NCBI GenBank assembly: GCA_044225365.1
Contig: JBGAIQ010000027.1
Coordinates: 1-64,000, forward strand
Length of the DNA: 64,000 nucleotides
Direction: 5' to 3'
Origin: Planctomycetota bacterium
Lineage (GTDB): Bacteria; Planctomycetota; B15-G4; JADJEK01
Shown: piece by piece, positions 7,622-33,396 of the stretch
Layout of the letters: every line of letters starts with the position of its first letter
Position numbering within the stretch: the first letter of the stretch is position 1
Notes under the pieces: generated by a model
Database searches by the model: none
Seen by the model: the letters and a program-made list of their open reading frames with translations, nothing else
Told to the model about the DNA's origin: nothing
Made by a program: the position numbers and the translations under genes

Positions 7622-7631
7622 AGGCTTTGCG

Positions 7632-10857: not shown

Positions 10858-10863
10858 TCGCGA

Positions 10864-12495: not shown

Positions 12496-12500
12496 TATTT

Positions 12501-12715: not shown

Positions 12716-12828
12716 TCCTCGGTTTCATCGCCCATCCGATTCGCTTCGCCTTCCTGTTCCTCATCGCCCCCGGATACATTCGCGCCGACTCGAGCAACGT
12801 GGCATCGCTCACCGGAGGGCGCACGCGC

Positions 12829-13140: not shown

Positions 13141-13480
13141 CCGCCGACAGCACATCCCTGCCGTTTCGCGTGCGCGGGGTTCACCTCGGCTCGTAACCCA
13201 GTTCCCACCCGCCCGATTTCGGGGTATCCTAGCGGGGTTCAGGACCCAGATTGCGGGCCCGCCTCGACCGACCGAATCGTTTCATCGATCCTCTCACCTC
13301 CCCGGCGCTTCGCGAAAGCGGCGGCGCGGCGCGGGGGAGATGCGCGCCCGGTCCGCCGGACAGCCGGTCAGGTCGACGACCCCGATGTCTCGATGACCGC
13401 CCATGCACAGGACGTGCTGCACACCGATCCCACCGCTCGGTGCGATTCTCGTCCGCCTCCTCCCGAACGGTGCTTCACCC

Positions 13481-16207: not shown

Positions 16208-16245
16208 ACCGCAATCCCTGCGGAATCACTGGAGGCCTTCGGCAC

Positions 16246-18816
16246 ATGCGCATTCCCACGTTCGCTCTCGCCCTCGCGGGCACGCTCCTCGTCGCTGCGA
16301 CGGCGTACTCGCAGGTTCGAATCATCCCGATCGGCGATTCGATCACCGACGGCAATCAGACGGCGCATACGACCTATCGCTGCAATCTGTGGTCGATGCT
16401 CGAGGCGCAGAACTACAACGTCGACTTCGTCGGCAGTCAAAACGGCGCCTCCGGTCAGCCGGCGGTGTGCAACCTCTCGGTGAATTTCGACGCCGACCAC
16501 GAAGGCCATTCGGGTTGGAAGATCGAGCAGGTGCTCGCCTGGATCTCCGATCCGCAGCACCAAGTGAGCCCGCCCCCGGACGTCGCGCTCATCCACATGG
16601 GCGTCACGAACCTGCTGCAGGATCTCTTCAACGCGATCACGCAGGTCACGGGACAGCCCCCGACGCAGGAGCAGGTCAACGCCGCGATCGGTAATGCGCT
16701 GACGAATCTATCCGCGATGATCGATCAATTGCGTACGCAGAATCCGAACATCACGATCTGCATCGCGCAGATCATCCCGGCGGACGTGTTCTTCGCGGGC
16801 TTCATGATCCCGTTCTCCGCGGTCGAGGTCTACAACGAGCAGATTCCCGTTCTCGCCGCGGCGAAGGACACGGACGCGTCGCGCGTCTTCGTCGTCGATC
16901 AGCACACGGGATACGACCCGGTGTTCGATTCCGTCGACGGCATCCATCCGAATCCCTCGGGCGAGCAGAAGCTCGCGAACGGCTGGTTCCCGCGCCTCAA
17001 GTTCATCCTCGATTCACTGCCCTGTTCCCAGGCGGCCTCGGCGTCCGTTTCGAGCAACATCGCTCCGAGCAATGTCCTGCCCGGCGACACGGTCACGCTG
17101 ACGGCGAGCGTCTCCGGCGGCACGACGCCCAATCTCTATCAATGGCGCCGCAACGGCGCGCCGATCGCGGGCGCGACGAATCCGACGTATACGATCCCGT
17201 CGATCACGATCCTGCAGGAGGGCGTATACGACTGCATCGCGGGCAACCTCTGTACGACGCTCACGAGCAACGGCGTCGCGCTGTTGCCCGGCGAGTTCGC
17301 CGCGCCGAGTCCTTACGCCGCGGGCAGCGGCCCTTCGGACCTCCTCGCTCTCGATCTCGGAGCGAATCCTGACGGGGCAATCGATCTCGTGTCGAGCAAT
17401 TCGGCGAGCGATGATCTGACGATCCGCTGGAACGATGGCAGCGGCCACTTCGCGACGACGACCACGATTCCGCTCGTGCCGGGCGATCAGCCCACGGCAC
17501 TCGCGGCCGCGAACTTCCAATCCGGGAATGGCGCGGAGATCGCCGTCGCGTGCGCGGGGAGCGACCTGGTTCGCGTGCTCGCCGACAACGGCGGCTACGC
17601 GGAGATCGTTTCGATCGCCGCGCCCGGCAGCTCATCGAATCCCGTCAGCCTCGCGTCGGGCGATCTCGACGGGGACGGCATCGCCGACTTGGTCATCGGC
17701 TACGCGGGTCAGCTCTTCTCGGGCGGCGGCAATCTTGCGATCGCGCTCGATCCCAACGTCCCTGGAACGGCGATTTCGCTGCCGCAGCCCGTGGGTGGGT
17801 TCCTCAGCGTGAAGGGCGTCGTCGTTGCGGACCTCGACGCGGATGGCGACCTCGACATCGCCGCCACGATGGCAGGCACGATGCTCTCGGCGTCGCAGAG
17901 CGACAACGTGCTGCTCTACGAGAACACGGGCGGCGGCGCGTTCCAGTTGAACGGCGCGCTCTCTGCGGATCGCAATCCCGGAGCGATCTGCGCGGGCGAT
18001 CTCGATGGCGACGGCCGCAAGGACCTCGCGGTCACCGTCGAGTCGGCGCCGTTCGGCGCGCCCGGCGGCGTGATCGTGTTCCGCCACGACTTGGCCGCGA
18101 GTCTCGCGCCAGTGGCGTTCACGCCGAGTGCGACCTTCAACTCCGGATCGCTCCCGATCGACATCGCTTGCGCCGATCTGCGCGACGACTCCATTCCCGG
18201 ATTCCAGTCGCGTGTCGATGTCGTCACGGCGAACTTCGCATCGGCGAATGTCGGTGTCCTGTATGGCTTCGACGGCGTGAACTTCGCTTCGACCGGCTCC
18301 TGCGCAGGCGGTCTCAATCCGCGCGCGATCGCGATCGCCGACTTCAACAACGATCGCACCGCCGACGTCGTGATCGCGAACGCGACTTCCAACGATCTCA
18401 CGGTCTCGCTCGCACTGCCGCGCGCGCTCGCGCAGAAGTTCGGCGCGGGTTGTTCGGGAACGGCGGGAACGCCTGCGATCCAGAGCGTCTCGACGCCGAG
18501 CTACGGCAGCACGACGTTCAGCGTCAATCTCACGAACGCGCGGCCATTCGCGCCGACGCTGCTCGGCGTGTCGCTGCAGTACACGAACATCGATCTCGGC
18601 GGCTGCACGCTGCTGATCTCGATGCCGTTCGTGCTCATCCCGATGTACGCGAGCGGCACGGGCACGGCGCAGTTCCCGGTCGGGATCCCGAACGAGGTCA
18701 CTCCGTTCCAGGGTCTCAACGCGTACTTCCAGTACTTCGTCTACGACCCCGCGGGCGGCTACCAATCGCAGATCGCGTTCAGCGACGGACTGCGCATCAA
18801 GTTCGGGAACCCGTGA
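16246..18816 (+). CDS. Secreted SGNH esterase + Ig + FG-GAP repeat protein
   Basis: Signal peptide; GDSITDG, HEGHSGW, DGIHPN; FG-GAP loops; GGAGG RBS at 16231. Confidence 0.85.
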   Translation: MRIPTFALALAGTLLVAATAYSQVRIIPIGDSITDGNQTAHTTYRCNLWSMLEAQNYNVDFVGSQNGASGQPAVCNLSVNFDADHEGHSGWKIEQVLAWISDPQHQVSPPPDVALIHMGVTNLLQDLFNAITQVTGQPPTQEQVNAAIGNALTNLSAMIDQLRTQNPNITICIAQIIPADVFFAGFMIPFSAVEVYNEQIPVLAAAKDTDASRVFVVDQHTGYDPVFDSVDGIHPNPSGEQKLANGWFPRLKFILDSLPCSQAASASVSSNIAPSNVLPGDTVTLTASVSGGTTPNLYQWRRNGAPIAGATNPTYTIPSITILQEGVYDCIAGNLCTTLTSNGVALLPGEFAAPSPYAAGSGPSDLLALDLGANPDGAIDLVSSNSASDDLTIRWNDGSGHFATTTTIPLVPGDQPTALAAANFQSGNGAEIAVACAGSDLVRVLADNGGYAEIVSIAAPGSSSNPVSLASGDLDGDGIADLVIGYAGQLFSGGGNLAIALDPNVPGTAISLPQPVGGFLSVKGVVVADLDADGDLDIAATMAGTMLSASQSDNVLLYENTGGGAFQLNGALSADRNPGAICAGDLDGDGRKDLAVTVESAPFGAPGGVIVFRHDLAASLAPVAFTPSATFNSGSLPIDIACADLRDDSIPGFQSRVDVVTANFASANVGVLYGFDGVNFASTGSCAGGLNPRAIAIADFNNDRTADVVIANATSNDLTVSLALPRALAQKFGAGCSGTAGTPAIQSVSTPSYGSTTFSVNLTNARPFAPTLLGVSLQYTNIDLGGCTLLISMPFVLIPMYASGTGTAQFPVGIPNEVTPFQGLNAYFQYFVYDPAGGYQSQIAFSDGLRIKFGNP

Positions 18817-18828
18817 ACTGCTGAACGA

Positions 18829-20379
18829 TCAGTCGTCCATGTGCGCCGAGATTCGCTCGTCGCCCATCTTCACGGCCGATGCGAGGCGCTTCGAGATCTT
18901 GCCGAAGATCGCTTCGTACGTGCGAATGAAGCCCTTCGTGATGACTCGCTTCGAGAAGTCGGCGAACATCGTGTTCTTGAAGCCCTTGAGACCCTGGGCG
19001 TCGGTGAAGCGCTTGTTGTGCTCGGAGAGCAGGATCTCGGTGAAGAGCAGGTAGGCGACGTTGTAGACCGGCGTCATCCACTTCAGCTTGATCGCCTTCA
19101 ACATCAGCGGCCGAAGTTTCGGATTGCGGACGACGATCGGGAACCACTTCTGGAAGTTCTCGAACTCGTGGCGGTTCTCGTAGGCGATCGGGAGCGAGCG
19201 GTTGAAGCGGTTGTCGAACTTGTCCCAGCTCTCGGTCGCGAAGCCCATGTTCTCCGTCATCTCGTTGATGTCGGTCATCGGATAGGGCTGGAGGAGCGAC
19301 ACGAGCGGGTGATCGACCCGCGCCTCGATGTTGAGGTCGAGCGTCTCGAGCTCGTCGCTCAGGGTCGCGCCCGGTCCGCCGATCATGTTGAGCGAGCCGA
19401 GGCGGATGCCTTCCTGCTTGATCCACTTCGAGGCGTTGAGGAGCTGCGCCTTCGTCGTGTTCTTCTTGTAGACCTGATTGCGCATGAAGTCGTTCGCGGC
19501 TTCGAAGGCGATGCGCGTGTAGACGCACCCGGCCTTCTTCAGCAGCTTGATGTGCTTCTCGACCGTCATGTTCGCCATCAGGATGCAGTCGAACGGCAAG
19601 CCGACTTCCTTGGGCCAACGCTCCGCGAACTCTTCGAGCCACTCGTTGCGCAGGTTGAAGATGTCGTCGACGAGATGGGCCATCCGCATCGGGTACTTCG
19701 CACGGATTGCATTGACCTCGGCGATCAGCGCCGAGACCGAACGGCGGCGCGTGTACTCGACCTTCGTGAGGTCGTAGACCTTCTTGCGCCAGGCGTGATG
19801 GAAGCAGAACGAGCAATCCATCGGACAGCCGCGCATCGTGATGAAGACCTTGCGGTGCGCGTTGGCGTAGAGCGGCGCCGCGTCGTAGACCATCTCGCGA
19901 TCGGGAGAACCGATGGCCTCGTACTCGGCCTCGGTCATGATCGGACGCACGCCGTTCTGGACGAGGGATCCGTCCTTGCGCTTGAACCAGAAGTTCTTCG
20001 TGTCGTAGATGTCGACGCCGTCGCGCATGCGATTCGCGAGGTCGACGAACGCCATCTCGCCCTCGCCGCGACACACCGCGTCGACCGGCCCCTGTTCGAT
20101 GAGGTTGGGGACGAATGTCGGGTGCGGTCCGCCGTGGATCACGAGCGCGTCGCACGCGCCCTTCACCTGGCGCGTGTAGTCCATCACGAGTTCCTGCATC
20201 CCGGTCGTGTACGAGAACGCCACGATCTGCGGGTCGTACTCCTTCAGCTTCGCGATCCAGTCCTTGTCCGGGAGGAAGAGCGCCTTCGTGTCGTGACCCG
20301 CGTTCTTGAGCGCGCGGGAGAGGAACATGATTCCGAGAGGCTCTTGCGGGATGTACTCGTGGACGAAGAGGACGCGCAT
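18829..20379 (-). CDS. Cobalamin-dependent (class B) radical SAM protein
   Basis: N-terminal B12-binding PLG..GGPHPT..RGEGE; RGCPMDCSFC. Confidence 0.9.
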   Translation of the reverse strand: MRVLFVHEYIPQEPLGIMFLSRALKNAGHDTKALFLPDKDWIAKLKEYDPQIVAFSYTTGMQELVMDYTRQVKGACDALVIHGGPHPTFVPNLIEQGPVDAVCRGEGEMAFVDLANRMRDGVDIYDTKNFWFKRKDGSLVQNGVRPIMTEAEYEAIGSPDREMVYDAAPLYANAHRKVFITMRGCPMDCSFCFHHAWRKKVYDLTKVEYTRRRSVSALIAEVNAIRAKYPMRMAHLVDDIFNLRNEWLEEFAERWPKEVGLPFDCILMANMTVEKHIKLLKKAGCVYTRIAFEAANDFMRNQVYKKNTTKAQLLNASKWIKQEGIRLGSLNMIGGPGATLSDELETLDLNIEARVDHPLVSLLQPYPMTDINEMTENMGFATESWDKFDNRFNRSLPIAYENRHEFENFQKWFPIVVRNPKLRPLMLKAIKLKWMTPVYNVAYLLFTEILLSEHNKRFTDAQGLKGFKNTMFADFSKRVITKGFIRTYEAIFGKISKRLASAVKMGDERISAHMDD

Positions 20380-20940
20380 GGATCTGCCCTTGGACCAATG
20401 GTGATGGATCGAGGAAGGCGGTCGGGCAGCGATGGATAGCTCAAATGTGGCATGTGCAATACCTGATTCTTGGGCGAAGTCTCGTCGATGCGTCGCGGGT
20501 CCGTTCCGTGCGCCGCCCGCCGGAGACCGCCTTCACCAAGATCAGCGTCGCTTAGCGCTCTAACCTCCTTGCATGCTCGGTTTGTGTCGAGTCGAAGTGA
20601 GTGACACGAGGTGTGCTCTCGTCGGAAGCGCCCGGCGGGTGCAACCGGCGCCGAATTCTCGAAAGCCCTTCACGATTTGACCCGGCCACCGACCAGGAAC
20701 GAGCCTCCTACGCGTCGTTGCATCCCGATCGAAGTCGTGCTTGGACTGCAGTCCAGGCCCTCATCGGGATTTCTCTTGGACCGCGCGAGTTTTCCGCGCG
20801 TCCGAACTCGGTGGGATCGGTTTGGTGCCCCGTGATCCATGGGAGTACCCACTGGTCGCGGGTCTGGATCGACCAAGATCACGGATCGTCGACGCTTCGA
20901 GGATTCGCGCGCGGATTCGGACGATCGTTCAAAGAAACCG

Positions 20941-21546
20941 ATGGCGGTACTTTGTGCAGAACACGGTCTCTTGTTCATCGGGAGCAAGAGAACGGCATCG
21001 ACGGCCGTTGGGAATGCACTCGTCGAGCAGCTTCGCGGGGTCTACGTTCCGCGAGTCAGGATCGAACTCCGGCCATCGGGAAACATATCGAAACGACACT
21101 CCACGATCGCCCAGATCGAACACTATGGGCTGATCCAAGTGGAGCTCGATTCGCTCCTGAAGGTCACGACGGTTCGAAATCCGTTCGACTCGCTCGTCTC
21201 GCTATGGGCGAAGGAGCGGTTCCGGGAGAACCGTACGCAGTCGTTCACCCAATTGAAGAGGGTCGATTTCAGCGAGTGGATGTGGAAGAAATTCAACCAC
21301 CGCGAAGTGATCTCGATGAATCGAGACTTCGTTCAAGGCGTCGATTCGATCTTGCGCTTCGAATCGCTGCAGGACGATCTGAACGGGCTTCTTCGTTCAA
21401 GAGGCATCCCGCCGGTCGTTCTGCCCGTCGTGAATCGGACGTCCGAGCGAGATCGAGATTATCGCAAGTACTACGATGATCGCGCGAGAGAGGTCGTGGA
21501 AAGAGTGTTTGCTCCCGATATCGAGAACTTCGATTACACATTCTGA
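20941..21546 (+). CDS. Sulfotransferase family 2-like protein
   Basis: LFIGSKRTAST (5'-PSB-like), VRNPFDSLVS (3'-PB), RFESLQDD, YRKYYD...DIENFDYTF. Confidence 0.75.
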   Translation: MAVLCAEHGLLFIGSKRTASTAVGNALVEQLRGVYVPRVRIELRPSGNISKRHSTIAQIEHYGLIQVELDSLLKVTTVRNPFDSLVSLWAKERFRENRTQSFTQLKRVDFSEWMWKKFNHREVISMNRDFVQGVDSILRFESLQDDLNGLLRSRGIPPVVLPVVNRTSERDRDYRKYYDDRAREVVERVFAPDIENFDYTF

Positions 21547-21625
21547 CTCGGCGGCTCGAATCGGTATCCATGGAAGTGCAGACTCGCGCCGAGGATTCGA
21601 TGGCACCAGCGATGAATGGACGAAC

Positions 21626-23191
21626 ATGACGGCTCGAAGGTCGGGTGCGCCGCGCGAACGCCGAACTCGTCAGTTCGTCCGAGCGGCGATCGTCGGCGTC
21701 CTGTCCGGAGCAGTCGCCGTGGCGTTCCACCTCGCACTCGAATACTGTGAGGAATCGAGGCGATGGCTCCTCGACACGCTGGGCCGACGATCAACCACGT
21801 TGTCCGTGCTCATTCCCGTCATCGTCTTCTCCACGATCGGTGCGTTCGTCGGATGGATGACCGAGAGATTCGCGCCAGAGGCTGCCGGCAGCGGCATTCC
21901 CCACTTGAAGGGCGTGTTGCTTCACCTTCGAGCCATGAATTGGCGAAGGGTCCTTCCTGTGAAGTTCTTTGGGGGTGCGCTCGGAATCGGGGCAGGACTA
22001 TCCCTCGGGCGCGAAGGACCCACGGTGCAGTTGGGAGCCGCGGTTGGAGCGTTCGTCGGCGAGGTGCTCCGAGTTCCCGATCGATCGCGCAACTCCCTCA
22101 TCTCCTGCGGCGCCGGGGCCGGCTTGGCCGCGGCATTCAACGCCCCTCTCGCCGGATTCCTCTTCGTCATCGAGGAGTTGCATCGCGAACTGTCCGCGAT
22201 GACGTTCGGAGGCGCGTTCGTGGCCTCGGTTTCGGCCGACATCCTCGTCAAGCTCGTGGGTCGGGATCGCTCGGCATTCGCGATCCATCACGAAGCGGGC
22301 ATGCCGGCGTCTCTGCTTCCGTTGCTGATCGTGCTCGGAGCGACTTGCGGCGTCCTCGGCGTAGTCTTCAACAAGGGTCTCCTGTTCTGCTCTCAGCGCC
22401 TCCGAGATCTGATACCTGTCTCACGCACGGTCTCGGTCGCTTCCGCTGCAGGGATCGCGGGCCTCGTGGCGTGGACCGTGCCCGATGCGCTCGGCAGCGG
22501 CCAACTCGCGGCGGCCTCGATCCTCGACGGGTCCCTCGATCGGTCGACTCTCGCTCTCCTCGTTCTGCTCGTCGCGAAGTTCGGGCTCACACTGCTCAGC
22601 TACGGATCCGGAGCTCCTGGAGGAATTTTCGCTCCGATGCTGCTGCTCGGCGCCACGGTGGGAGGAATCCTCTCGAATCTCGCAGGCGCGCTGTTCCCGA
22701 TTCCCGATTCGAGTGGATCGGCCTTCGCGGTACTCGGGATGGCGGCGTTCTTCTGTGCGTCGGTGCGAGCGCCGCTCACGGGAATCGTGTTGATCGTCGA
22801 GATGACCGGCAACTACGAGCACCTGCTCGACATCTGCGTCGCTTGCCTTTCTGCTTACCTCGTTGCTGAAGCGCTCTACGACACGCCGATCTACGACGCA
22901 TTGCTCCATTCGGATCTCCGGCGACAAGGACTTCTTCCACGCGAGCTGGATGGCGTCGAACCCCGTTCGCTCGTGTTCGTCGTCGAGCCCGGCGCACCGA
23001 TCGATCAGTCGCTGCTGATGGACGCAGGAATTCCGTCCGGCTGCCTGATCGTCGGCATCGAGCGGAGTGGACGCGAGATCATGCCGCGACCGAAACTGAA
23101 GCTGCTCGCAGGCGATCAGCTGACGGTTCTGCTGGATCCTGGCGAAGAACGAGTGCTGAGGCTCCGGGAGTTGACGCGGGCGTCGGGCTGA
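21626..23191 (+). CDS. clcA: ClC H+/Cl- exchange transporter with C-terminal TrkA-C (RCK_C) domain
   Basis: GSGIP, GREGP (gating Glu), GIFAP, IY motifs; GCLIVGIERSGREIMP...GD. Confidence 0.9.
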   Translation: MTARRSGAPRERRTRQFVRAAIVGVLSGAVAVAFHLALEYCEESRRWLLDTLGRRSTTLSVLIPVIVFSTIGAFVGWMTERFAPEAAGSGIPHLKGVLLHLRAMNWRRVLPVKFFGGALGIGAGLSLGREGPTVQLGAAVGAFVGEVLRVPDRSRNSLISCGAGAGLAAAFNAPLAGFLFVIEELHRELSAMTFGGAFVASVSADILVKLVGRDRSAFAIHHEAGMPASLLPLLIVLGATCGVLGVVFNKGLLFCSQRLRDLIPVSRTVSVASAAGIAGLVAWTVPDALGSGQLAAASILDGSLDRSTLALLVLLVAKFGLTLLSYGSGAPGGIFAPMLLLGATVGGILSNLAGALFPIPDSSGSAFAVLGMAAFFCASVRAPLTGIVLIVEMTGNYEHLLDICVACLSAYLVAEALYDTPIYDALLHSDLRRQGLLPRELDGVEPRSLVFVVEPGAPIDQSLLMDAGIPSGCLIVGIERSGREIMPRPKLKLLAGDQLTVLLDPGEERVLRLRELTRASG

Positions 23192-23295
23192 ACGTGCACG
23201 CGATCACCGCAACCGGCGCCGAATCTGCTTCCCCGATTTCACGTCGATCTTGTAGCCTCGGCGAGTTCCTCGACGGAATCCTCCTCGACGGAACC

Positions 23296-23353
23296 CAAGG
23301 GTGCAGAGTCATTGGGACTCCAGCAGGCTGCGAGATGGTCGGGCCGCCATCTC
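23296..23353 (+). ncRNA. nhaA-I-like (Li+/Na+) riboswitch candidate, copy 1
   Basis: CAAGGGTGC-A-GAGTC/GACTC-CA-GCAGG...GAGATGG-TCGGGCCG-CCATCTC; same architecture as copy at 28397. Confidence 0.75.
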
Positions 23354-23439
23354 AATTCCATGGCAACCCGTTTCAGGCGATCGTGCGCGATCACGATCGT
23401 CCACTCGAATTCGGGAGGCTGTGAACGGAACTGCCTGCC

Positions 23440-25659
23440 ATGCGTCGGTCGACACAGAGATATCTCGCTCTCCTCCTGCTCGGCCTCGCCGTCGCACTGT
23501 GGGTCGCTTCGAAGATCGTGACGGTCACGACTTGGCAGTGGTTCGAAAGGGACTTGGCGTTACGAGCCGAGCTCGCGGCCAATGGAGCGCGACAGACTCT
23601 CGCCGAGAGGATCGGCGCGAACGACGACACCGGCGCGATACGAGTGCTCGAAGACATTACTCGCGATGAGCGAATCATCGCCGCGGCACTGCTCAGTCCA
23701 GGCGGCGAACTCTTCGCAGTCACTCCCGATTACCCTCCGACACTGCGCGGCGAGGATCTGGGCCTCGATCTTCATCCCGACGTCACTTCGAACGCGCGGG
23801 GTGAACTCGGCACTCGCGCGATCGAGATCAGCGGTGTCCCGATCGACGTCAAGGGCGCCACCTATCATGTCGTATTGCTCCACGACCTCAGCTTCGTCGA
23901 GCGACGCCAAAAAACCGTGGATCGCTTTCTTTGGGTTGGGTTCCTCGCGCTCTTGATCTGCGGTGCGCTCTCGCTGTTCGTGGGGACGCGACTCTCATGG
24001 GGTGAATGGACTGCACGTTTGCGCCGATTCGTCCGGGGCGAGACGCGCGAAGCTCTATTCCAACCTCTCGTCGGCGAGATTCGGGACCTCAGCCGTCGTA
24101 TCCAGGATCAACGAGGTGGTGCAACGGGGAATCCATGGACACCGGCGCGCCTCAAGCAGTTCCTCCGTACCGAACTCATGGGCGAGCGAGTCATCATGCT
24201 CGCGAATCGCGAACCGTACATACACGTCAAGGACAAGGAAGGAAACGTCCGCGTCATGCATCCCGCGAGCGGCCTCGTCACCGCGATGCAGCCGGTCATG
24301 CGAGCATGCTCCGGAGTGTGGGTCGCACATGGAAGCGGCACCGCGGACCGCGAAGTCGTCGACGCGAAGGATCACGTCGGCGTTCCACCCGAATCACCGC
24401 AATATACGTTGAGGCGCGTGTGGTTGTCGCCGGCCGAAGAGCAGGGGTATTACTACGGATTCGCGAACGAAGGGCTCTGGCCGCTGTGCCATCTGGCGCA
24501 TGTGAGGCCGGAGTTTCGCAGATCGGATTGGGATCAGTACCGTGCCGTGAATCAGCGCTTTGCCGACGCAGTCTGTGAAGAAGCGGATGTCGACGATCCC
24601 ATCGTTCTGGTCCAGGACTACCACTTCGCGCTCGCCCCTCGAATGATCCGCGAGCGACTTCCCCGCGCGAGTATCATCACGTTCTGGCACATCCCGTGGC
24701 CAAACGCGGAGCGGATCGGCGTCTGCCCCTGGGCGAACGAGATCCTGGACGGCTTACTCGGAAGTTCCATCCTGGGCTTTCACACCCAACTTCACTGCAA
24801 CAACTTTCTCGACGCCGTCGACCGGCTACTGGAATCGAGGATCGACCGTGAAGTGCACGGAGTCCAGGTACAGGGACGCGTTTGCCTCGTTCGACCGTAT
24901 CCGATATCCATCGAGTGGCCGCTCCGATGGCCAGCGGAGTCACCGCCACCGACCAAGTGTCGACAAGTGGTGTTCGATGAACTGGGACTTGCTAAGGATG
25001 CGATCCTAGGCGTCGGAGTTGATCGTCTTGATTATACAAAAGGCATTCTCGAGCGATTCCGCGCGGTCGAGCTCGCATTGCAGCGAGACCCCGAGCTCGC
25101 GAGACGCCTGACTTTCGCACAGCTATCGGCGCCTTCGCGTTCCGCGATCGAGAAGTACCGAGATTTCGATCAACAAGTCATCGACGAGGCGGCACGGATC
25201 AACCGTCAGTTCCAGCGAGCGGATGGTGGTCCGATCCGCTTGCTTCGAGCACACCATGAACCGCCCCGTGTCCTTGCTTTCTATCGTGCGGCCGATTTCT
25301 GCATGGTCACGAGTCTCCACGACGGGATGAACCTGGTGGCCAAGGAATTCGTCGCGGCGCGGGAGGATGAGCGCGGAGTGCTCATCTTGAGCAAGTTCAC
25401 AGGGGCCGCCAAGGAGCTGAGCGAAGCGCTCGTCGTGAATCCTTACGATCTGGAACACTGCGCTGCGGCGATTGCTTTTTCCGCCGCGATGCCGATCCAC
25501 GAGCAAACTGCGAGAATGCGAGCGATGAGATCGGTAGTCGCCGAATTCAATGTCTACGCATGGGCCGGTCGAATGCTCGCAGATGCTGCGCGACTTCGCT
25601 GGCACGAGCGATTGATTGGACAGCTCAGTCGGTTTCCGGACTCGTTGGGGACATCATGA
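23440..25659 (+). CDS. otsA: Trehalose-6-phosphate synthase (GT20) with N-terminal TM-periplasmic-TM extension
   Basis: [50 protein letters not shown]. Confidence 0.92.
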
Positions 25660-28208
25660 ACCCATCATCGCGACTCGATCAACGGCTTCGCGAGATCTCG
25701 ACCGCGCCGGTACTGCTCGTCGCCACCGATTTCGACGGGACTGTTGCCCCCATAGTGCCCCGGTACGAGGATGCGACAGCGGATCGGGACGCGATCGTCG
25801 CGCTGCGAATGCTCTCGCAATTGCCGCATACCTTCGTTGCGGTCATCTCGGGACGTTCCCTCGATGACCTTTCGAAACGCATGGACGGAGCGTCGGACTT
25901 CCATCTCATCGGCAGTCATGGAAGCGAGTTCGAATCGGGCTTCGCCGAGCGACTGACCGAAGCGGATCTCCACCTTCTCGAAGCGATCCGAATCGAGCTC
26001 GAACCGATCGTGGCGCGCTTTCCGGGTTCGCGTATCGAGCTGAAACCCGGTGCGCTCGCATTTCACTTCCGTGAACTCTCGGATGAGGAAGGCGCGCAGG
26101 CGGAGCAAGCTGTCATGCTGGGACCGGGTCGCCGTCACGGCGTACAGGTGCGCCAGGGAAAGAAGGTGGTCGAATTCTCTGTCGTTCCGGCGAACAAGGG
26201 ACTGGCTTTGGATCGGATTCGCCAGCGCGTTGGGGCCACGGTCGTGGTCTACCTCGGTGATGACGTCACCGATGAAGACGCGTTTGCCGCACTGAGTGGG
26301 CCCGATCTCGGATTGAAGATCGGCAGTGGAGGTACGAGTGCCAAGTACCGAGTGCCGGAGCGGTCGGACGTTTCTCGCCTTCTCGCGCGACTTGCCGAAG
26401 CCCGAGCCGAGTGGCTGGCCGGTCGAGATGCCGAACCGATCGAATCGCATGCGATGCTCTCGGACCAACGCTCGATCGCGCTCTTGACGCAGAGCGGCAG
26501 GATCTCATGGTTCTGCTCGCCGCGCATCGACTCGTCGGCGCTGTTCGCAGAACTGGTTGGTGGCCCTCCCGCCGGATTCTTCGAGATTCGCGAGGAGGGC
26601 TCGTCGCGACCGATTCGACAACGCAATGACGGCGACACCTTCACCGTGATCACGGAATGGCCCAATCTGCGGGTCATCGATTATCTCGATGCTGCGAATG
26701 GGCGCGCTTTCCAGCGTGCGGGTCGGACGGATCTCGTTCGGGTCGTGGAGGGGGCGGGACGTGCTGCGGTCACCTTTGGTCCACGACTCGATTTTGGTCG
26801 AATTCCGACGCGACTGTCGAAGGCCGACGGAGGACTGGTGGTCGAGGGGGCGCGTGAGCCCATCGTGCTCTACACCCCCGGTGTCGAGTTCGAGATCGTC
26901 CAAGACGGAGCGCATCAGACAGCGTATGCGACCCTCGAGGCCACGGGCCGGCCAATCGAATTCGAACTTCGTTGCGGCACTCGCAGTCTCGCACCGACGA
27001 TGAAGTCGGAGCGCATTCGACGCGACTCCAATCAGCGGTTCTGGAGCAGTTTTGCATCGACTCTGGTCTTGCCGACTCGATTCGCCCAGCCCGTGAAGAG
27101 GAGTGCGCTCATCCTGAAAGCACTCACGTACGGACCCACCGGCGCAATCGCGGCAGCGGCGACGACGAGCCTTCCCGAGTGCCGTGGCGGCGTTAGGAAT
27201 TGGGATTATCGATTCTGTTGGCCACGAGACGCTGCGATCGCGTCTCAGGCGCTTGCCCTCATCGGTGCGATAGGAATCGGCTCGAAATTCCTCGATTGGC
27301 TGATCGAAACACTCGAGCGAACGTCCTCCGAGCCAGGTTCGATCGATCTTCCCGCACCGGCGTATTCGGTGACCGGAGCGCACCTCTCGCCCGAGGCCGA
27401 ACTCACTCATCTCGCGGGCTATGCGGGCAGTCGACCCGTGCGCCTCAGCAATGCCGCCTCCCAACAGATTCAGCTCGATGTTTTGGGCCCAGTGGTGGCC
27501 CTGGTCGCCGAACTCGCGAAACACGGCGCTCCGATTTCGGTGGATCATTTCCGGCTCGTGGAACTCGCCGTCGAATCCGTTCGCGCTCGGTGGATGGAGC
27601 CAGACCATGGGATCTGGGAGATCCGCCTGCCGAAGCGCCATCATGTTCATTCGCGCGTCTCGTGCTGGCTCGCCGTCGATCGCGCCCTCGTCGTGGCGCA
27701 CTATTTAGGGGTGACACGCGACGGGTGGGTCGAACTCGCGAACGAGATCAAGAACGATATTCTCGATCGCGGATTCCATCGGTCGGTGAATGCATTCGGT
27801 ACGAGTTATGAAGACCCGGCGGCGGATGCTGCCGCCTTGATCACAGGCCTATCAGGAATGATCGCTCCGGATGATCCACGCTTCATTGGAACTGTAGATT
27901 GGGTGGAGAGGAACCTAAAGCAAGGCTCGGCGGTGTACCGTTATCGATTCGACGACGGGCTCCCTGGAAGAGAGGGAGCCTTCAATATAGCAACGACGTG
28001 GTTCATCGAGTCGCTCGCCCTTCTCGGTCGCTACGATGAAGCTGAGAGTCTGTTCGCTGATTACCTTCGACTCGCCGGCCCGACCGGCCTCATCGCCGAG
28101 GAGTTCGATCCGGAGACGAAGGCGGCCCTGGGAAACGTGCCGCAGGCGTACTCGCATGCCGGTCTCATCTTCGTCGCTCACCGACTGTCGACGCGGGCCG
28201 AACATTGA
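25656..28208 (+). CDS. otsB: Trehalose-6-phosphate phosphatase fused to GH15 (trehalase/glucoamylase-like) domain
   Basis: HAD DFDGT, SGR, NKG, GDDVTDEDAF; GH15 RNWDYRFCWPRD, DHGIWEIR, EEFD..LGNVPQAYSH; ATGA overlap with otsA. Confidence 0.9.
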   Translation: MNPSSRLDQRLREISTAPVLLVATDFDGTVAPIVPRYEDATADRDAIVALRMLSQLPHTFVAVISGRSLDDLSKRMDGASDFHLIGSHGSEFESGFAERLTEADLHLLEAIRIELEPIVARFPGSRIELKPGALAFHFRELSDEEGAQAEQAVMLGPGRRHGVQVRQGKKVVEFSVVPANKGLALDRIRQRVGATVVVYLGDDVTDEDAFAALSGPDLGLKIGSGGTSAKYRVPERSDVSRLLARLAEARAEWLAGRDAEPIESHAMLSDQRSIALLTQSGRISWFCSPRIDSSALFAELVGGPPAGFFEIREEGSSRPIRQRNDGDTFTVITEWPNLRVIDYLDAANGRAFQRAGRTDLVRVVEGAGRAAVTFGPRLDFGRIPTRLSKADGGLVVEGAREPIVLYTPGVEFEIVQDGAHQTAYATLEATGRPIEFELRCGTRSLAPTMKSERIRRDSNQRFWSSFASTLVLPTRFAQPVKRSALILKALTYGPTGAIAAAATTSLPECRGGVRNWDYRFCWPRDAAIASQALALIGAIGIGSKFLDWLIETLERTSSEPGSIDLPAPAYSVTGAHLSPEAELTHLAGYAGSRPVRLSNAASQQIQLDVLGPVVALVAELAKHGAPISVDHFRLVELAVESVRARWMEPDHGIWEIRLPKRHHVHSRVSCWLAVDRALVVAHYLGVTRDGWVELANEIKNDILDRGFHRSVNAFGTSYEDPAADAAALITGLSGMIAPDDPRFIGTVDWVERNLKQGSAVYRYRFDDGLPGREGAFNIATTWFIESLALLGRYDEAESLFADYLRLAGPTGLIAEEFDPETKAALGNVPQAYSHAGLIFVAHRLSTRAEH

Positions 28209-28396
28209 TTCGATCGTCGACGGCGGACGGCGGCGAGCGCTACAGGTCGTCACGATGCTCGATCGCTCAGGGCCTGCGGTCGAGAGGACCACGGTTTTCT
28301 TCGAAATCGACTGCGGTCCAAGTGCGGACCCGCTAGTCTACCGGTTCGTTGAATGGTTCGGCTTTGCCGAAGCCTTCGACGCGCTGCGAAGCGGCG

Positions 28397-28456
28397 CAAG
28401 GGTGCCGAGCCCATTCGGGGCTCGAGCAGGCAACGTGGATGGTCGGGCCGCCATCC
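28397..28456 (+). ncRNA. nhaA-I-like (Li+/Na+) riboswitch candidate, copy 2
   Basis: CAAGGGTGC-C-GAGCCC/GGGCTC-GA-GCAGG...GGATGG-TCGGGCCG-CCATCC; upstream of NhaD-like gene. Confidence 0.78.
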
Positions 28457-28475
28457 CAAAAGGCGTTGCTCTTTC

Positions 28476-28826
28476 GTGACGACTACCAAGAACTCCGGAT
28501 CGCCCTCGGGCGACCCGAGGGCCCTTATCAATACACCCAGCGGTTGCTTGCTCCACGTGTTCTCACAGTTCGGTGGCGCCATGCTCATATTGTGCGTTGC
28601 GCTGCTGATTCTTCGCCGGCCGCCGTGGGTCTTTTCCGTTCTCGACATCGTGTATCTCGTTGCGGTCATGGCGCTCGTGGCCGTGCAGCGCTTCGATTAC
28701 GCTAGTTCGCCCATCGAATCGGAGGGGCGTGTGATCGACGCGCGATCGCCCACGCTCCGCCGTGCAATGAAGACCGTTGGGCTCACCGCGGTGCTCTGGG
28801 CGGCAGTCAACTCGTTTCAGATTTGA
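28476..28826 (+). CDS. Small hypothetical membrane protein (about 3 TM)
   Basis: Three hydrophobic segments; GTG 28476 lies just after the riboswitch candidate; start uncertain. Confidence 0.55.
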   Translation: MTTTKNSGSPSGDPRALINTPSGCLLHVFSQFGGAMLILCVALLILRRPPWVFSVLDIVYLVAVMALVAVQRFDYASSPIESEGRVIDARSPTLRRAMKTVGLTAVLWAAVNSFQI

Positions 28827-28961
28827 ATGCGGATCGCGAGGCCGTGAGCTCCTGATCGAAGAGACGACGCGACCGGCAAAGCGTCGTCGCTTCGTTCGGT
28901 GCAACGGATCGCGGTTTCGCGATCGATGAATCCCACCTGCTTTCGGCTCGGAGCGCCAACC

Positions 28962-30101
28962 TTGCCTGTCGAATTCGTGATCTTCGGTCTCACACTTCTC
29001 GGCGTCGCGATTTTTCATAACAAGACTCTATGGGTCGCGCTCGCCGGTCTACTCTCGTTGCTCACATACAAACTCGGATTCACCGATTTCCCGGTCGCGC
29101 ATCACCTTCATGAAGAACTTCCTCTCCTACTGAATCTGTTCGGCCTGCTCGTTGGATTCACGGTACTCGCTGGACACTTCGAACGATCGGGAGTGCCCGA
29201 GTGGCTGCCGCGTCTATTGCCGAACGATTGGAAGGGAGGATTCGTACTACTCGTGATCGTGTTCGGCCTGTCGGCGGTGCTGGACAACATCGCCGCGGCG
29301 TTGATCGGAGCAACGATTGCTCGCACCGTCTTCTGTGACCGGCTTCATATCGGGTATCTCGCCGCCATCGTCGCCTCGTCGAATGCGGGAGGAGCACCCT
29401 CCGTCGTCGGAGACACCACGACGACGATGATCTGGCTCGCCGGCGTGGAGCCGCTCCGGGTCCTTCCCGCGCTCATTGCGTCGATCGCCGCGTTCCTTTT
29501 CTTCGGAATCATCGGTTCCGTTCAACAGGATCGATATCAGCGCATTACACGAGACGAACGCATTCCGGTTCGGATCGATCGGGGGGCGCTTGCCACCGTC
29601 CTCCTCATCCTTGCGGGAGCGGTGGCGGCAAACGTGTATCTGGGGCACCGACCGGCCGTGGGTGTGTGGGCGGCGATCCTCGTCGCGGCGCCGTTTCGGA
29701 AGCCGCATTGGCGGGCAATCCCCAAGGCCGCCGTGAGCGCGTCGTTCCTCGTTGCGCTGGTCTTCACGGCTTCGATGATGCCGGTCGACCGCCTTCCATC
29801 CCCCTCGTGGGGTTCCGTGTTCGGACTTGGAGTCGTTTCGGCCGTCTTCGACAACATCCCGCTGACGAAACTCGCGATCGACCAGAACGGCTATGACTGG
29901 GCCCTGCTCGCCTACGCGGTCGGCTTCGGCGGCTCCCTCATCTGGTTCGGGTCGTCGGCGGGAGTCGCCGTTTCGAGCGTCTGCTCGAACGCGAAGTCAG
30001 TGGCAGCTTGGGTGCGGCACGGCTGGCCGGTTTGGATCGCCTACTCGATCGGTTTCTTCGCGCTTCTTTGGATTCGAGGATGGAATCCGATCCACCTTTG
30101 A
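28962..30101 (+). CDS. IT-superfamily (NhaD/CitM-like) ion transporter
   Basis: LSAVLDNIAA, SNAGGAPSVVGDTTT, SAVFDNIPLT, GGSLIWFGSSAGVA; GGAG before TTG 28962. Confidence 0.85.
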   Translation: MPVEFVIFGLTLLGVAIFHNKTLWVALAGLLSLLTYKLGFTDFPVAHHLHEELPLLLNLFGLLVGFTVLAGHFERSGVPEWLPRLLPNDWKGGFVLLVIVFGLSAVLDNIAAALIGATIARTVFCDRLHIGYLAAIVASSNAGGAPSVVGDTTTTMIWLAGVEPLRVLPALIASIAAFLFFGIIGSVQQDRYQRITRDERIPVRIDRGALATVLLILAGAVAANVYLGHRPAVGVWAAILVAAPFRKPHWRAIPKAAVSASFLVALVFTASMMPVDRLPSPSWGSVFGLGVVSAVFDNIPLTKLAIDQNGYDWALLAYAVGFGGSLIWFGSSAGVAVSSVCSNAKSVAAWVRHGWPVWIAYSIGFFALLWIRGWNPIHL

Positions 30102-30133
30102 ATTCGCGATGATGCTCGTTCACGTCGGCGCGC

Positions 30134-31174
30134 TCAACGCGACTCCGCCGCCTTTCTGGTGCGCTTTGCCTTCGCGGCCACCGGCGCGGCTTCGAGAGCG
30201 AGCTCGGGAAACTCACGATCGAAGCCGGCCTGCTTGAACCCGGCGAGCGTGTTCTCGTAGACCGGGCTCTTCAGGTGCTTCTCGACGTAGGCCTTGCCGC
30301 CGTCGAGGAGCAGCAGGCTGCGCAGGTAGTGGCGAATCCGGTCGTGGCCGTAGGCCGTGTTGTGGTCGAGCCAGAACACGATGAGGTTCAGGTAATTCGA
30401 CCGGGCATCGAGGCCGAGGCGTTCCTTCAGCATCAGCGATCGTTCGCACCACAAGATCGCGCTCTGGACTTCGCCGCGGCGGACGTGGACGCCGGCGAGG
30501 TTGTTCATGGCGTGGGCTTGCGTCTCGCGTTCGTAGGCGTCGTTCGTCGTGCGCCGGCACACCGTGTTGAAGAGCAACTCCGCGCCGTCGAGATCGCCCT
30601 TCGTGTAACGGAGGAATCCGAGCAGGTTCGCGGCATCGAGAGCATGTCGGCCGCCGATCGCGATCGCGCGCCGCAGTACGGCTTCGACGAGTTGGAACGA
30701 ACGCTTCGACTTCGAACGCGATTCGACGATGAGTTGCTTCAACGCCTTCGCTTCGCAACTCGTCTCGGTGCGACCTTCGGAGTACTCGTCGAGCGCATCG
30801 AGACGATCGAGCGCGTCCGAGGCGACATCGTCGACCTGCGCCGGGATCTGATCGAAGCAGAACATCCGGAACGTCGATTCGTCGGTCTCTCGCAGCAGCG
30901 ACTTGGCGAGGCGGTAGACCGTGGAGTTCACCCCGTCGATGATGCGCAGGAGCGGATCGGATTCGGCTGGGGACGTGGCGAGGAAGAGATCGCAGAGTCG
31001 GGAGAAGCAGCGCGGGCAGTGCGCCGCGTGCAGCGTCAGCGTGGTCGCTTGACCGAGGGGACGCAGCGCACCCAGCAGTTGGCGCAGGTCGGCAGCATCG
31101 GCGAGACAAGCTCGATCCGTCTGCCTCAGCGCCGCGCGCGTTCGCGTGTCCGATTTGCGTCGTTCGACGTTCAT
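30134..31174 (-). CDS. Soluble ZAS zinc-finger + TPR protein (anti-sigma-like)
   Basis: C-x25-HAAHCPRC; TPR-like NLLGFLRYTKGDLDGA and NNLAGVHVRRGEVQSA; ATGA overlap with upstream gene. Confidence 0.7.
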   Translation of the reverse strand: MNVERRKSDTRTRAALRQTDRACLADAADLRQLLGALRPLGQATTLTLHAAHCPRCFSRLCDLFLATSPAESDPLLRIIDGVNSTVYRLAKSLLRETDESTFRMFCFDQIPAQVDDVASDALDRLDALDEYSEGRTETSCEAKALKQLIVESRSKSKRSFQLVEAVLRRAIAIGGRHALDAANLLGFLRYTKGDLDGAELLFNTVCRRTTNDAYERETQAHAMNNLAGVHVRRGEVQSAILWCERSLMLKERLGLDARSNYLNLIVFWLDHNTAYGHDRIRHYLRSLLLLDGGKAYVEKHLKSPVYENTLAGFKQAGFDREFPELALEAAPVAAKAKRTRKAAESR

Positions 31175-32313
31175 GATGTGATGACCCCCTCCGTGGAGTC
31201 CTCCCGGTCCAACGAGAGCACGGAACTCTCGTTGTCCTCCGTCGCCAGTTTCACGACGAAGGAAAGGGTCTCGGCGTAGCGCCGGAAGAGTCGAGACGCG
31301 ATCTCGTCCGCATCCTCGATCGATGCGTCCTCGACGTTCGCGCTCTCGATCTGGAGCAACGCCGCGCGCACCAGGCCGTAGGGGCTGTGACCCGGGAAGA
31401 ACCAACCCCAGGTGCGCTGAAGGTGCGTGGCGAGGGCGCTCGAGAACTGCGCCAACGCTTCACGCGGTGAGAAGGAGAGTTCCTGACACAGACGCGACCA
31501 GCGTTCGAATCCTTGCTGGGTGCGAACCGCGCGAAGCGGCTGCCAGAGACGATGATGATCGTGGAGGCAGATGCCGTAGGACTGCGTCGCCTGCGGCGGG
31601 GGGATCTGCGAGACGACGAGCGTCTGCTGCAGCTCCGAGAGGCTGAGGACGAAGAGGTCGACGACCATCGAGACGACGTAGTCGGGAGTCGACCGGCCGT
31701 TCGTGGACTCATCCGCCAGCGCCTGATCGGCGCGCGAGCGCTCTTCGCCGCGCATCCGCATGAGGCGGAATCGGGCGAGGTAGCCCTCGGCGATCCGAAC
31801 TCTCCGGCCCGCGCGCAGGCGCTGCGCCGACGCCTCGAGGAACTCGAGGAGATTGGCGCGGAACCGTGTCCAGAGCGTCGGGTGCTCGTACTCGAGCTCG
31901 ATCGTGACGCGTGGATCGGTCACCGTCGCGATGAACTCCTCGCCGGCGATGAAGAGCCACGTGGCGAGGAAGTCGAGGACGGCGCCACTGCGGTACTGAG
32001 CTTCCGCTGCGGCCTCCGCGACGCGATCGATCAGTTGGGCAAGCGTCTGGGCCTTGGCCCCGCGCGCTCGCAGATGAACGAGGAACTCCGCCGCCTTCTC
32101 GCGTCGAGTCTGGATGCCGCTGTCGTCGCGAGCGACTGCCGATAGTTGGTCGGCGAGTTCGCTGAGCGAATGGTGCGCTTGATCGAGGAGCTGTCCTCGG
32201 TCGCTGTTGCGCACCAACTCGCGAAGCAGCATCACCCCGATCGGGGGTGACCCGTAGCGCAGGGCGGACAGCGTCTTAATGTCCGCTTCCTTGGATGGGC
32301 GAGGGTTGATCAT
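31171..32313 (-). CDS. Hypothetical helical protein, possible highly divergent ECF-type sigma factor
   Basis: RFRANLLEFL (sigma2-like) and WSRLCQELSFSPREALAQFSSAL (sigma4 HTH-like); coupled to ZAS gene. Confidence 0.5.
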   Translation of the reverse strand: MINPRPSKEADIKTLSALRYGSPPIGVMLLRELVRNSDRGQLLDQAHHSLSELADQLSAVARDDSGIQTRREKAAEFLVHLRARGAKAQTLAQLIDRVAEAAAEAQYRSGAVLDFLATWLFIAGEEFIATVTDPRVTIELEYEHPTLWTRFRANLLEFLEASAQRLRAGRRVRIAEGYLARFRLMRMRGEERSRADQALADESTNGRSTPDYVVSMVVDLFVLSLSELQQTLVVSQIPPPQATQSYGICLHDHHRLWQPLRAVRTQQGFERWSRLCQELSFSPREALAQFSSALATHLQRTWGWFFPGHSPYGLVRAALLQIESANVEDASIEDADEIASRLFRRYAETLSFVVKLATEDNESSVLSLDREDSTEGVITS

Positions 32314-33118
32314 GGGTCGCTGCGACGAGGGAGTGGGTGGTAATGAGCCGAAAGGGAACCGAACCGGGCTTGTTCGCCGAGTAGCTCGCCCCGCCGCCGC
32401 CGAAATTGGCTTTGCCGGCGGAGGGAGACGGGGGCGCTTGAGCGTCCTGCGGGCCCGGATCGGGAGGTCCCGCAGTCGTGGAGGTGGAGTTGGAACCGCT
32501 TGCAGCGACTCCTTGGGATTGCGCCGTCTCGGCTGACGGGGCCGACGCGCCCGACGACGCGAGCGTGCTCGGCGGAAGCGTCGTCGAACTCGGGGCGGGC
32601 GCAGGCGTGTCGGGCGTGGGCGTTTCCGCGTCGTCAGTTGCGACCGCGACGGGATCGGTGACGACGTAGTTCTGGCTGACCGGATCGTGGAATGCGACTC
32701 GGAACTGCAGGCCCGCATCGCGAAGCTGCTGAAGGGTCACGTCGATCGGAAGGGTTCCGTCGACATCGACCTTGCCCGCCGCATCAATGGTCAAGGGCAT
32801 CACGATCGCCGAGGCGAGTTCTTCCGCCGTCAGTTGATTCGACGTCGGATCTCCGGCGAACGCCGCGTGCGTCACGAGAAGAACGGCTTCGGTCGTGCCG
32901 AGGTCGTCCAAATGCAAGTGGAGGCCATCACCCGGGTGTTGCGGAGGCGCGTAGGACAGCGCCACCGAGCCGACCGTATCGGTCGGAAGCGCGTCCGTTG
33001 CGCCATCGGCCGGGAGGGCAGAGAGATGCCCGGCGATGGCGATCGCGGTTGCGAATCCGATTCCCGCGATCGAGAGCGGTCGGCAAGCTCGATCGGCGGG
33101 GTACCTGCGATTGTGCAC
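32276..33118 (-). CDS. Secreted protein with beta domain and Pro/Ser/Thr-rich tail
   Basis: GGAGG RBS before GTG 33118; hydrophobic signal SIAGIGFATAIAIAG; low-complexity C-terminus. Confidence 0.65.
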   Translation of the reverse strand: MHNRRYPADRACRPLSIAGIGFATAIAIAGHLSALPADGATDALPTDTVGSVALSYAPPQHPGDGLHLHLDDLGTTEAVLLVTHAAFAGDPTSNQLTAEELASAIVMPLTIDAAGKVDVDGTLPIDVTLQQLRDAGLQFRVAFHDPVSQNYVVTDPVAVATDDAETPTPDTPAPAPSSTTLPPSTLASSGASAPSAETAQSQGVAASGSNSTSTTAGPPDPGPQDAQAPPSPSAGKANFGGGGASYSANKPGSVPFRLITTHSLVAATHDQPSPIQGSGH

Positions 33119-33396
33119 GAAGAAGTTCCTCCGCTCCCGTCCACCGGACGACAAAGCGCTGACGATGTCTCGCAACGATTCCGCACGATGCGGCCACCAC
33201 ACCGTTGACTCGATGTGGTAGATCCCCAGGGTGGTCGACCTCGTCCTGACTCGAGATTCGATCACCACCGGCGCAGGACCTGGATCGGCAGCGTTTCCCG
33301 AGTCTCGTCGAAAAAACACATCTTTTCTTCAAGGTCCGTCACCGACCACCTTCTCGCGCGTGAGGGGATCGCCCAAGTTCCATTGCGCTCAATCCC

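Follow-up and report, generated by a model that had tools for sequence, protein, structure and literature searches.

Two nhaA-I riboswitches ahead of trehalose and ion-transport genes in a compositionally atypical block of a Planctomycetota genome

The window, that is, the whole stretch of DNA analysed here, comprises 64,000 nucleotides (nt) of contig JBGAIQ010000027.1 from a Planctomycetota bacterium (assembly GCA_044225365.1). The elements in question are two RNAs of the nhaA-I motif, the Li+-I riboswitch (Weinberg et al., 2017, PMC5737381; White et al., 2022, PMC9646797), and the genes among which they stand. Six genes are packed into positions 20839-30101, and the co-orientation described for them in the initial annotation is borne out: all lie on the + strand, with minus-strand genes on either side, a B12/radical SAM gene at 18829-20379 and a TPR gene at 30134-31405. 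The features of this block, with protein lengths in amino acids (aa) and open reading frames abbreviated as ORFs, are the following.

20641-20656, + strand: first copy of a 16-mer, exact match, 183 nt 5' of the sulfotransferase start
20839-21546, + strand: sulfotransferase-family gene, 235 aa (PF03567 Sulfotransfer_2, E = 7.8e-8)
21626-23191, + strand: ClcA-type H+/Cl- exchanger (ClC) with a C-terminal TrkA_C domain (PF00654, E = 1.1e-100; PF02080, E = 2.8e-10)
23209-23224, + strand: second copy of the 16-mer, 18 nt past the ClC stop and 75 nt ahead of switch 1
23299-23352, + strand: nhaA-I (Li+-I class) aptamer, switch 1 (RF03057, 47.3 bits)
23440-25659, + strand: membrane sensor-fused trehalose-6-phosphate synthase (OtsA), 739 aa (PF00982, E = 7.7e-109)
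25656-28208, + strand: OtsB-TREH_N-GH15 fusion (PF02358, PF19291, PF00723)
28400-28456, + strand: nhaA-I (Li+-I class) aptamer, switch 2 (RF03057, 52.4 bits)
28476-28826, + strand: small three-helix membrane protein, 116 aa, GTG start at 28476
28899-30101, + strand: NhaD-like permease, 400-aa ORF (TIGR00775, E = 1.8e-19, below the cut-off)

Two copies of one riboswitch-like RNA had been recognised at the outset, and both proved to be RF03057 matches when the whole window was scanned against Rfam, at 47.3 and 52.4 bits against a gathering score of 37. Each aptamer covers the full model (positions 1-55 of 55), and together they are the only RF03057 matches in the 6.53-Mb assembly. They have in common a GGGUG 5' end, P1, a GCAGG linker and P2 with a CGGGCC loop, and both read GGUCGGGCC, with a U just before the loop that is kept in 24 of 24 aptamers aligned from the window's phylum. 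The family to which both RNAs belong is a validated class of alkali-cation riboswitches. When 18000-34000 was scanned with a full model, the two known copies alone came back, with no third or degenerate switch ahead of the ClC or sulfotransferase gene; the next best score was 6.3 bits. The DUF1646 (Na+-I) model had no match at E values up to 1, either in 3-kb stretches around both aptamers or around nine loci of relatives.

The Li+-I members assayed by White et al. (2022, PMC9646797) were switched ON by Li+. A rare variant from Desulfobulbus propionicus, termed Na+-II, senses Na+, carries a C in place of the U and uses an intrinsic terminator as its expression platform; Na+-II RNAs are reported only in Deltaproteobacteria, ahead of genes of unknown function (PMC9646797). 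The C/U position was mapped here as the base before the CGGGCC loop, from a construct in the supplement of the same paper.

The assignment of each RNA to the leader of an expected unit is supported, switch 1 preceding the trehalose genes and switch 2 the small protein with the NhaD-like permease. Switch 1 ends 88 nt ahead of the OtsA start. Aptamer 2 ends 20 nt ahead of the small protein's start codon, and the leader and spacing of this switch recur in the relative G003, where the distance is 21 nt. Ribosome access is the probable control point for most nhaA-I members (White et al., 2022, PMC9646797), and a start codon so close to the aptamer makes switch 2 consistent with such control. No terminator-like site was found on the + strand 3' of either aptamer. 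A GC-rich hairpin at about 28495-28521 was rejected as a terminator platform because it falls inside the coding sequence of the small protein, at a place where the peptide is conserved in G003; a leader peptide for switch 1 was likewise rejected, the 53-codon ORF that begins 8 nt past the aptamer being neither hydrophobic nor seen elsewhere. In the minimum-energy fold of switch 1, the GCAGGC linker pairs with GCCUGC beside the AUG, a fold that is not significantly better than those of shuffled sequences.

Related RNAs were also encountered at other loci. An element with the nhaA-I P2 and loop, U kept, stands 1-5 kb from OtsA in three of the 80 OtsA loci described below (L044, L068 and L089), and its P1 (CAGAAA...UUUCUGGAGG) resembles that of the Na+-sensing D. 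propionicus RNA. On a single metagenome contig (L170), an nhaA-I switch and a fluoride riboswitch (RF01734, 51.1 bits; 806-869, minus strand) lie on opposite strands, some 220 nt apart.

The gene behind switch 1 encodes an OtsA protein built, in order, from a first transmembrane helix, an extracytoplasmic PAS/Cache-like domain, a second transmembrane helix, a helical linker and a GT20 domain at residues 250-716. From its sequence, the GT20 assignment is certain: PF00982 matches with 365 bits, far over its cut-off. The TIGR02400 equivalog model gives 393.7 bits, below its cut-off of 564.85, and the exact substrate is less sure than the domain. Residues 1-253 had no Pfam match, and HAMP was not detected. 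A structural model of the N-terminal 260 aa, computed from a 23-row alignment with a predicted local distance difference test score (pLDDT) of 86.4, shows an alpha/beta domain between a transmembrane helix and a second long helix, the latter followed by a helical linker. Its best fold matches in the PDB are the extracellular domains of WalK/YycG (9a5d, E = 3.7e-7; 7dud and 4ywz, TM-score 0.70 by the target), followed by other PAS/Cache sensor domains.

Sensor-fused OtsA is widespread: of 600 sites that matched the pattern in species-representative genomes, 599 encode a relative. Titles of the 80 best relatives, at 45-65% identity, name Acidobacteriota, Pseudomonadota, Myxococcota, Gemmatimonadota, Nitrospirota, Bdellovibrionota or Verrucomicrobiota, and in no case Planctomycetota. 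Within the phylum, the front end was matched in three of 301 genomes, G005 and G010 (68%) and G147 (43%). Two cysteines of the outer domain are nearly invariant in most homologues of the fusion and absent from the window protein and from G010. No paper treating sensor-fused OtsA was found among the full-text matches listed, which is not proof of absence.

The start of the OtsB-GH15 gene overlaps the OtsA stop as ATGA, on which ground translational coupling of the two is proposed. The OtsB part scores 116.6 bits with TIGR00685, above the equivalog cut-off of 68.05, and matches the trehalose-6-phosphate (T6P) phosphatase structure 6qj6 (E = 9e-24), to which its HAD motif DFDGT aligns. The GH15 part is recognised by PF19291 and PF00723, reaches 308 bits with NF041084 against a cut-off of 820, and has no sequence relative in the PDB at E values up to 1. 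In G005 and G010, OtsA adjoins separate GH15 and OtsB genes.

The first gene behind switch 2 appears in the protein collection only as an 81-aa version (P0138) that begins at ATG 28581. Conservation with G003 extends 5' of this codon to GTG 28476, giving a protein of 116 aa, and similar ORFs lie 3' of a switch in G003, G012, G043 and G050. A five-member profile located the family at 28 places in 23 of the 301 phylum genomes; RF03057 lies directly upstream on the same strand in 14 of the 28, four of these 14 being seeds, and with seeds excluded the proportion is 10 of 24, including all seven places with E values of 1e-17 or better. Pfam had no match in 12 of 12 members. The word-indexed collection contains 18 relatives, of which the four named by NCBI are Planctomycetota entries called 'hypothetical protein', and an exhaustive search returned 1311 representative clusters at E values up to 0.001 (1001 at 1e-10).

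Metagenome loci of this family were collected by means of an alignment of four rows; of 304 candidates, 149 passed confirmation, and the analysis used the best 80, which include several near-duplicates from sister samples. A dedicated covariance model found the switch in 57 of the 80, always on the coding strand, with a median of 43 nt (range 29-130) between switch end and start codon, and the 20 weakest calls were all above the Rfam gathering score on recheck. Among the 23 switch-negative loci, 20 were rechecked and gave neither nhaA-I nor DUF1646 at E values up to 0.1; L214 and L219 have no upstream sequence. The ORFs that come next were scanned in 44 of 50 cases, six duplicates or short ones having been dropped. 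They include OtsA (L208, and 744-aa forms in L232 and L241), P-type cation ATPases (2), CNNM/CorC (3), CitMHS_2, MscL, an octopine-dehydrogenase-like enzyme and ThuA (2), while 19 had no Pfam match. In the switch-less loci L185, L192 and L198, the small-protein gene is followed by CNNM/CorC-type (Mg2+/Co2+ efflux-like) genes.

The protein is characterised by the motif GCLxRLFWMxxGN, a D in helix 2 and a loop with RYVDIxxLxGxTAxGEPATxxHWRRY. Three helices make up its model (pLDDT 76.7), for which a fold search of the PDB gave no match at E values up to 0.001, the best being E = 2. It is the most riboswitch-faithful gene of the set and belongs to a widespread family without a name. By analogy with CrcB behind the fluoride riboswitch, it might be the dedicated first gene of nhaA-I units and a new small efflux channel or carrier for Li+ or Na+, a tentative idea that we consider improbable as it stands. 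A 68-aa hydrophobic ORF that may or may not be related to the small protein was seen behind a further switch in G060. There (L015, G060:C135, 3723-3997), a second nhaA-I switch stands on the + strand between minus-strand CitMHS and OtsA genes, and the ORF starts 18 nt past the switch and converges on the CitMHS 3' end. This may be a stand-alone unit of switch and small protein, or an antisense arrangement.

The permease that completes the block had been called NhaD-like, a name that stands at the superfamily level and fails at the equivalog level. Partial matches gave 69.8 bits with TIGR00775 (cut-off 577.1) and 56.1 bits with NF038006 (cut-off 80), both short of NhaD equivalogy, and Pfam had no match at E values up to 10. 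At least 8000 homologues exist; among the 120 listed, many are named 'NhaD/arsenite permease-like', 'citrate transporter' or 'SLC13 family permease', and many carry PF03600. The protein collection contains a 379-aa version (P0001). The gene in G003 is 62% identical to that of the window, and a further copy (59%) lies on a different contig of the window's own genome (G000). A quick tree of 50 rows, not run to completion, joins the copies behind switches, those of G000 and G003, to the exclusion of the other copies of the family, with a Shimodaira-Hasegawa-like approximate likelihood ratio (SH-aLRT) of 98 and with long branches flagged.

Upstream of switch 1, the ClC protein scores 428.3 bits with the ClcA equivalog model NF003640, above its cut-off of 350. 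Its ORF spans 21476-23191, and ATG 21626 is the likely start as judged from the sequence. The sulfotransferase had no NCBIfam match and is the lowest-GC gene of the block (GC 0.555; GC at third codon positions, GC3, 0.669). The initial annotation had placed Cl-/H+ exchange, cation exchange and trehalose turnover together under RNA-level cation sensing. This is supported for the trehalose genes and for the small protein with the NhaD-like gene, which stand behind switches, but not for ClC: it lies with the sulfotransferase ahead of switch 1 and there is no third switch, so that Cl-/H+ exchange is a neighbour for which RNA control is not supported. It may also be, as a weaker additional reading, that the sulfotransferase turns trehalose into a charged osmolyte.

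The same pairings of RNA and cargo recur in relatives. RF03057 is present in seven of 61 genomes of the window's lineage, G000 included, and in one of 11 other genomes of the same family. Six of the 60 relatives searched thus carry the switch, and five of them have the following cargo, as named by Pfam.

G003: switch, small protein, NhaD-like gene (62%)
G060: switch, CitMHS permease, OtsA, OtsB-like stretch
G012: switch, small protein, TreT, phosphatase, OtsA
G020: tandem switches, CitMHS_2 permease, beside OtsA and a 50%-identical OtsB-GH15 fusion
G043: switch, small protein, Na+/H+ exchanger; at another switch, a 405-aa protein with no Pfam match and a GT2

In G050 (L014, G050:C23), tandem nhaA-I switches head a nine-gene operon at 4398-17102 on the minus strand, encoding an octopine-dehydrogenase-like enzyme, a B12-binding protein, a Na+/H+ exchanger, an asparagine-synthase-like protein, MscS, GT4, GH130, TrkH and TrkA. 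For osmoadaptation genes placed under a single RNA class, an operon of this size is unusual.

Conservation of the whole gene set together with the RNA was not borne out in the 80 nearest OtsA loci. A strict riboswitch core occurs in three of them and never directly ahead of OtsA, and an NhaD-like gene is present in three, a sulfotransferase in none. ClC occurs in nine, within 10 kb of the sensor-fused OtsA in these unrelated loci, which suggests a loose functional link between the two. Synteny in the phylum stands for the RNA-to-cargo pairings, found in six other genomes, but not for the module as a whole. The cargo in the six relatives agrees with the classes of the published association table, in which 944 nhaA-I representatives are assigned to nhaA (356), hypothetical proteins (171), otsA (16), nhaD (6), putative citrate transporters (5), glycosyl transferases (5), trkA (4) and mscS (3), among others (PMC9646797, Supplementary Table I). 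Control of trehalose is discussed there, and the choice between Li+ and Na+ for otsA-linked members is left open by the authors (PMC9646797). Since otsA and nhaD were already listed with nhaA-I RNAs by White et al. (2022, PMC9646797), the combination, at first taken to be undescribed, is not new; the locus clearly adds a further example to a theme already in print.

The block also differs from its genome in composition. An excess of A/T-ending codons had been judged by eye, and computation of GC, GC3 and tetranucleotide profiles shows a deviation in all three. The region has a GC content of 0.613, compared with 0.651 (standard deviation 0.012) for 9.7-kb windows of the genome, a value as low being reached in 0.85% of 2818 windows. 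GC3 of the six genes is 0.67-0.74 against a mean of 0.807 (standard deviation 0.049) for 3092 long genome ORFs; OtsA, OtsB-GH15 and the sulfotransferase fall at or below about the 1st percentile, the NhaD-like gene near the 5th and ClC near the 8.5th. In tetranucleotide distance from the genome mean, 0.86% of 1161 windows are as extreme. By composition, the block is foreign to its genome. Outside the block, at window positions 37482-39245, two + strand ORFs form another stretch of low GC3 (0.65-0.67).

The RNA family membership, the protein domains, the RNA-cargo pairings that recur in relatives and the atypical composition are direct observations. The favoured reading, to which we assign a probability of about 0.72, is that the block is a salt/ion-stress module of three transcription units with cation-ON switches. 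Unit A would consist of the sulfotransferase and the ClcA-type exchanger, with no riboswitch; unit B of the first nhaA-I riboswitch, the sensor-fused OtsA and the translationally coupled OtsB-GH15 fusion; and unit C of the second nhaA-I riboswitch, the 116-aa three-helix membrane protein and the NhaD-like permease. A rise in a cytoplasmic alkali cation, Na+ in salt stress and possibly Li+, would lead to its binding to each aptamer, and the bound aptamer would turn expression ON, probably by freeing the translation start region, given that no terminator follows either aptamer. The cell would then make trehalose as a compatible solute and export the cation, and the extracytoplasmic PAS/Cache-like domain of OtsA could provide a second control layer at the protein level. 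For this locus, we infer the ON direction, the expression platform, the transport substrates and Na+ or Li+ as the ligand of the switches.

Several points weigh against this reading. If active, the fused GH15 trehalase-like domain would undo trehalose synthesis. No RNA sequencing run is listed as containing the locus, which is complete in just two DNA runs of one sample, perhaps that from which this DNA came. Around the most similar OtsA genes (68%, genus g6), 20-kb stretches contain neither a switch nor ClC nor an NhaD-like gene, and the module is therefore not a conserved unit. The leader folds compared with shuffles gave z values of -1.3 and -2.4, no clear gain in stability, and a strong hairpin stands within the 88-nt spacer after aptamer 1. 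Both aptamers, moreover, lack the C of the validated Na+-sensing variant and carry the U of the Li+ majority, so that the case for Na+ as the ligand is made by gene context only.

That U bears directly on an alternative in which the switches are strictly Li+-selective and the module serves Li+ detoxification, with the cation exported by the NhaD-like permease and the small protein while trehalose offsets Li+ inhibition of sugar-phosphate enzymes. Both copies belong to RF03057 and have the U of most Li+-I aptamers, the C-to-U change in the variant broadened its response to include Li+, and Li+ control of trehalose synthesis is one reading given by White et al. (2022, PMC9646797). However, the U mutant answered Li+, Na+ and NH4+ alike (PMC9646797), and because all 24 phylum aptamers carry U, this base cannot tell Li+ from Na+ sensors here. 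The cargo in the phylum is mostly osmoadaptive (MscS, TrkAH, TreT, OtsA, glycosyltransferases, octopine-dehydrogenase-like enzymes), and no nhaA gene lies behind any switch examined; on balance, strict Li+ selectivity is unlikely. A further proposal concerns initiation of transcription rather than the ligand. The 16-bp upstream motif reported in the initial annotation is real: GCAACCGGCGCCGAAT occurs exactly at 20641-20656 and 23209-23224 and at no other site in the genome, and it contains the 8-bp palindrome CGGCGCCG. Co-regulation of the trehalose unit with ClC could be explained if the 16-mer were a common operator or promoter of the two, which would tie chloride exchange in. Its restriction to two intergenic sites in 6.5 Mb, both some 180-220 nt 5' of the next start codon, and the ClC genes near sensor-fused OtsA in unrelated loci speak for such a role, whereas there are just two copies, none of them 5' of switch 2, no sigma-70-like promoter was found beside either, and in about 120 loci a single unrelated site (L026) came within two mismatches. 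Alignment of the two intergenic regions was equalled in one of 300 shuffles, so that a chance origin of the shared 16-mer is unlikely though not impossible. A shared operator thus seems to us a rather poor bet.

The origin of the block can likewise be read in two ways. It had been described as an acquired module, and of this claim the atypical composition and the patchy distribution stand, but no integrase, transposase, tRNA or flanking repeat was found at the borders and no empty site is readable, since the flanks are not syntenic in G001 or G005 (the radical SAM gene was the sole one among 29 window ORFs to match the loci around its orthologues in these genomes). The genes could instead be old residents and chance neighbours, their low GC3 being due to weak selection on the codons of stress genes that are seldom expressed. 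The borders fit this, as do the best relatives of OtsA (68%), the NhaD-like permease (62%) and the small protein, all from the same family; the native radical SAM neighbour is 68% identical to its genus g6 counterpart, the same value as OtsA, and the switch-linked unit of G003 also has a lower GC3 (0.85) than most of its neighbours (0.87-0.96). Against long residence, six adjacent genes all lie in the low tail of GC3 and the tetranucleotide signature deviates as well. The orthologous OtsA of G005 has a GC3 of 0.89, like its flanks, so that low GC3 does not come with the gene itself. The parts differ in where their nearest relatives are found (OtsA in genus g6, OtsB-GH15 in G001 and G020 at 48-50%, the NhaD-like gene in G003), and G000 has its second NhaD-like copy elsewhere, outside the switch-linked group (SH-aLRT 98). 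Residence is accordingly somewhat unlikely, less so than the two proposals above, and we infer a mosaic once resident in a lower-GC genome, probably of the same phylum.

The locus offers a compact natural setting in which to ask whether Li+ or Na+ is sensed by otsA-linked members, with two U-type aptamers ahead of clearly osmotic cargo. In Planctomycetota, the nhaA-I class appears, from the gene neighbourhoods, to be tied to compatible-solute synthesis and to varied ion-transport genes. Apart from the small protein and the ligand question, this is an ordinary, well-annotatable stress locus. The small protein is the part of the block most worth experiment, as nameless families linked to riboswitches have before proved to be the missing transporter.

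Compared with the Li+-I riboswitch, the window RNAs share the model, the GGGUG end, P1, the linker, P2 with its loop and the U, and they occupy leaders of listed gene classes (otsA, nhaD). They differ in that no nhaA stands behind them, the cargo being trehalose synthesis and a permease below the NhaD cut-off, and in the use of two separate copies for two adjacent units. The Na+-II riboswitch has the same general fold, and a setting of osmotic or sodium response is plausible; in contrast to Na+-II, the window RNAs have U instead of C and no terminator-like site after the aptamer. The pairing of the fluoride riboswitch with CrcB (Fluc) offers an analogy only, that of a small membrane protein tightly tied to an ion-sensing riboswitch: no relation in sequence or fold was found, and the small protein has three helices, whereas CrcB has four. 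Like E. coli OtsBA and the soluble GT20 synthases, the window combines a GT20 domain and a HAD-type T6P phosphatase in one operon. Expression of E. coli otsBA is driven by an osmotically induced, RpoS-dependent promoter. Unlike its E. coli counterpart, however, the window OtsA bears a 250-residue front end resembling those of sensor kinases, with WalK-like fold matches, and the phosphatase, unlike E. coli OtsB, is fused to a GH15 trehalase-like domain, with control by an RNA switch being proposed for the pair.

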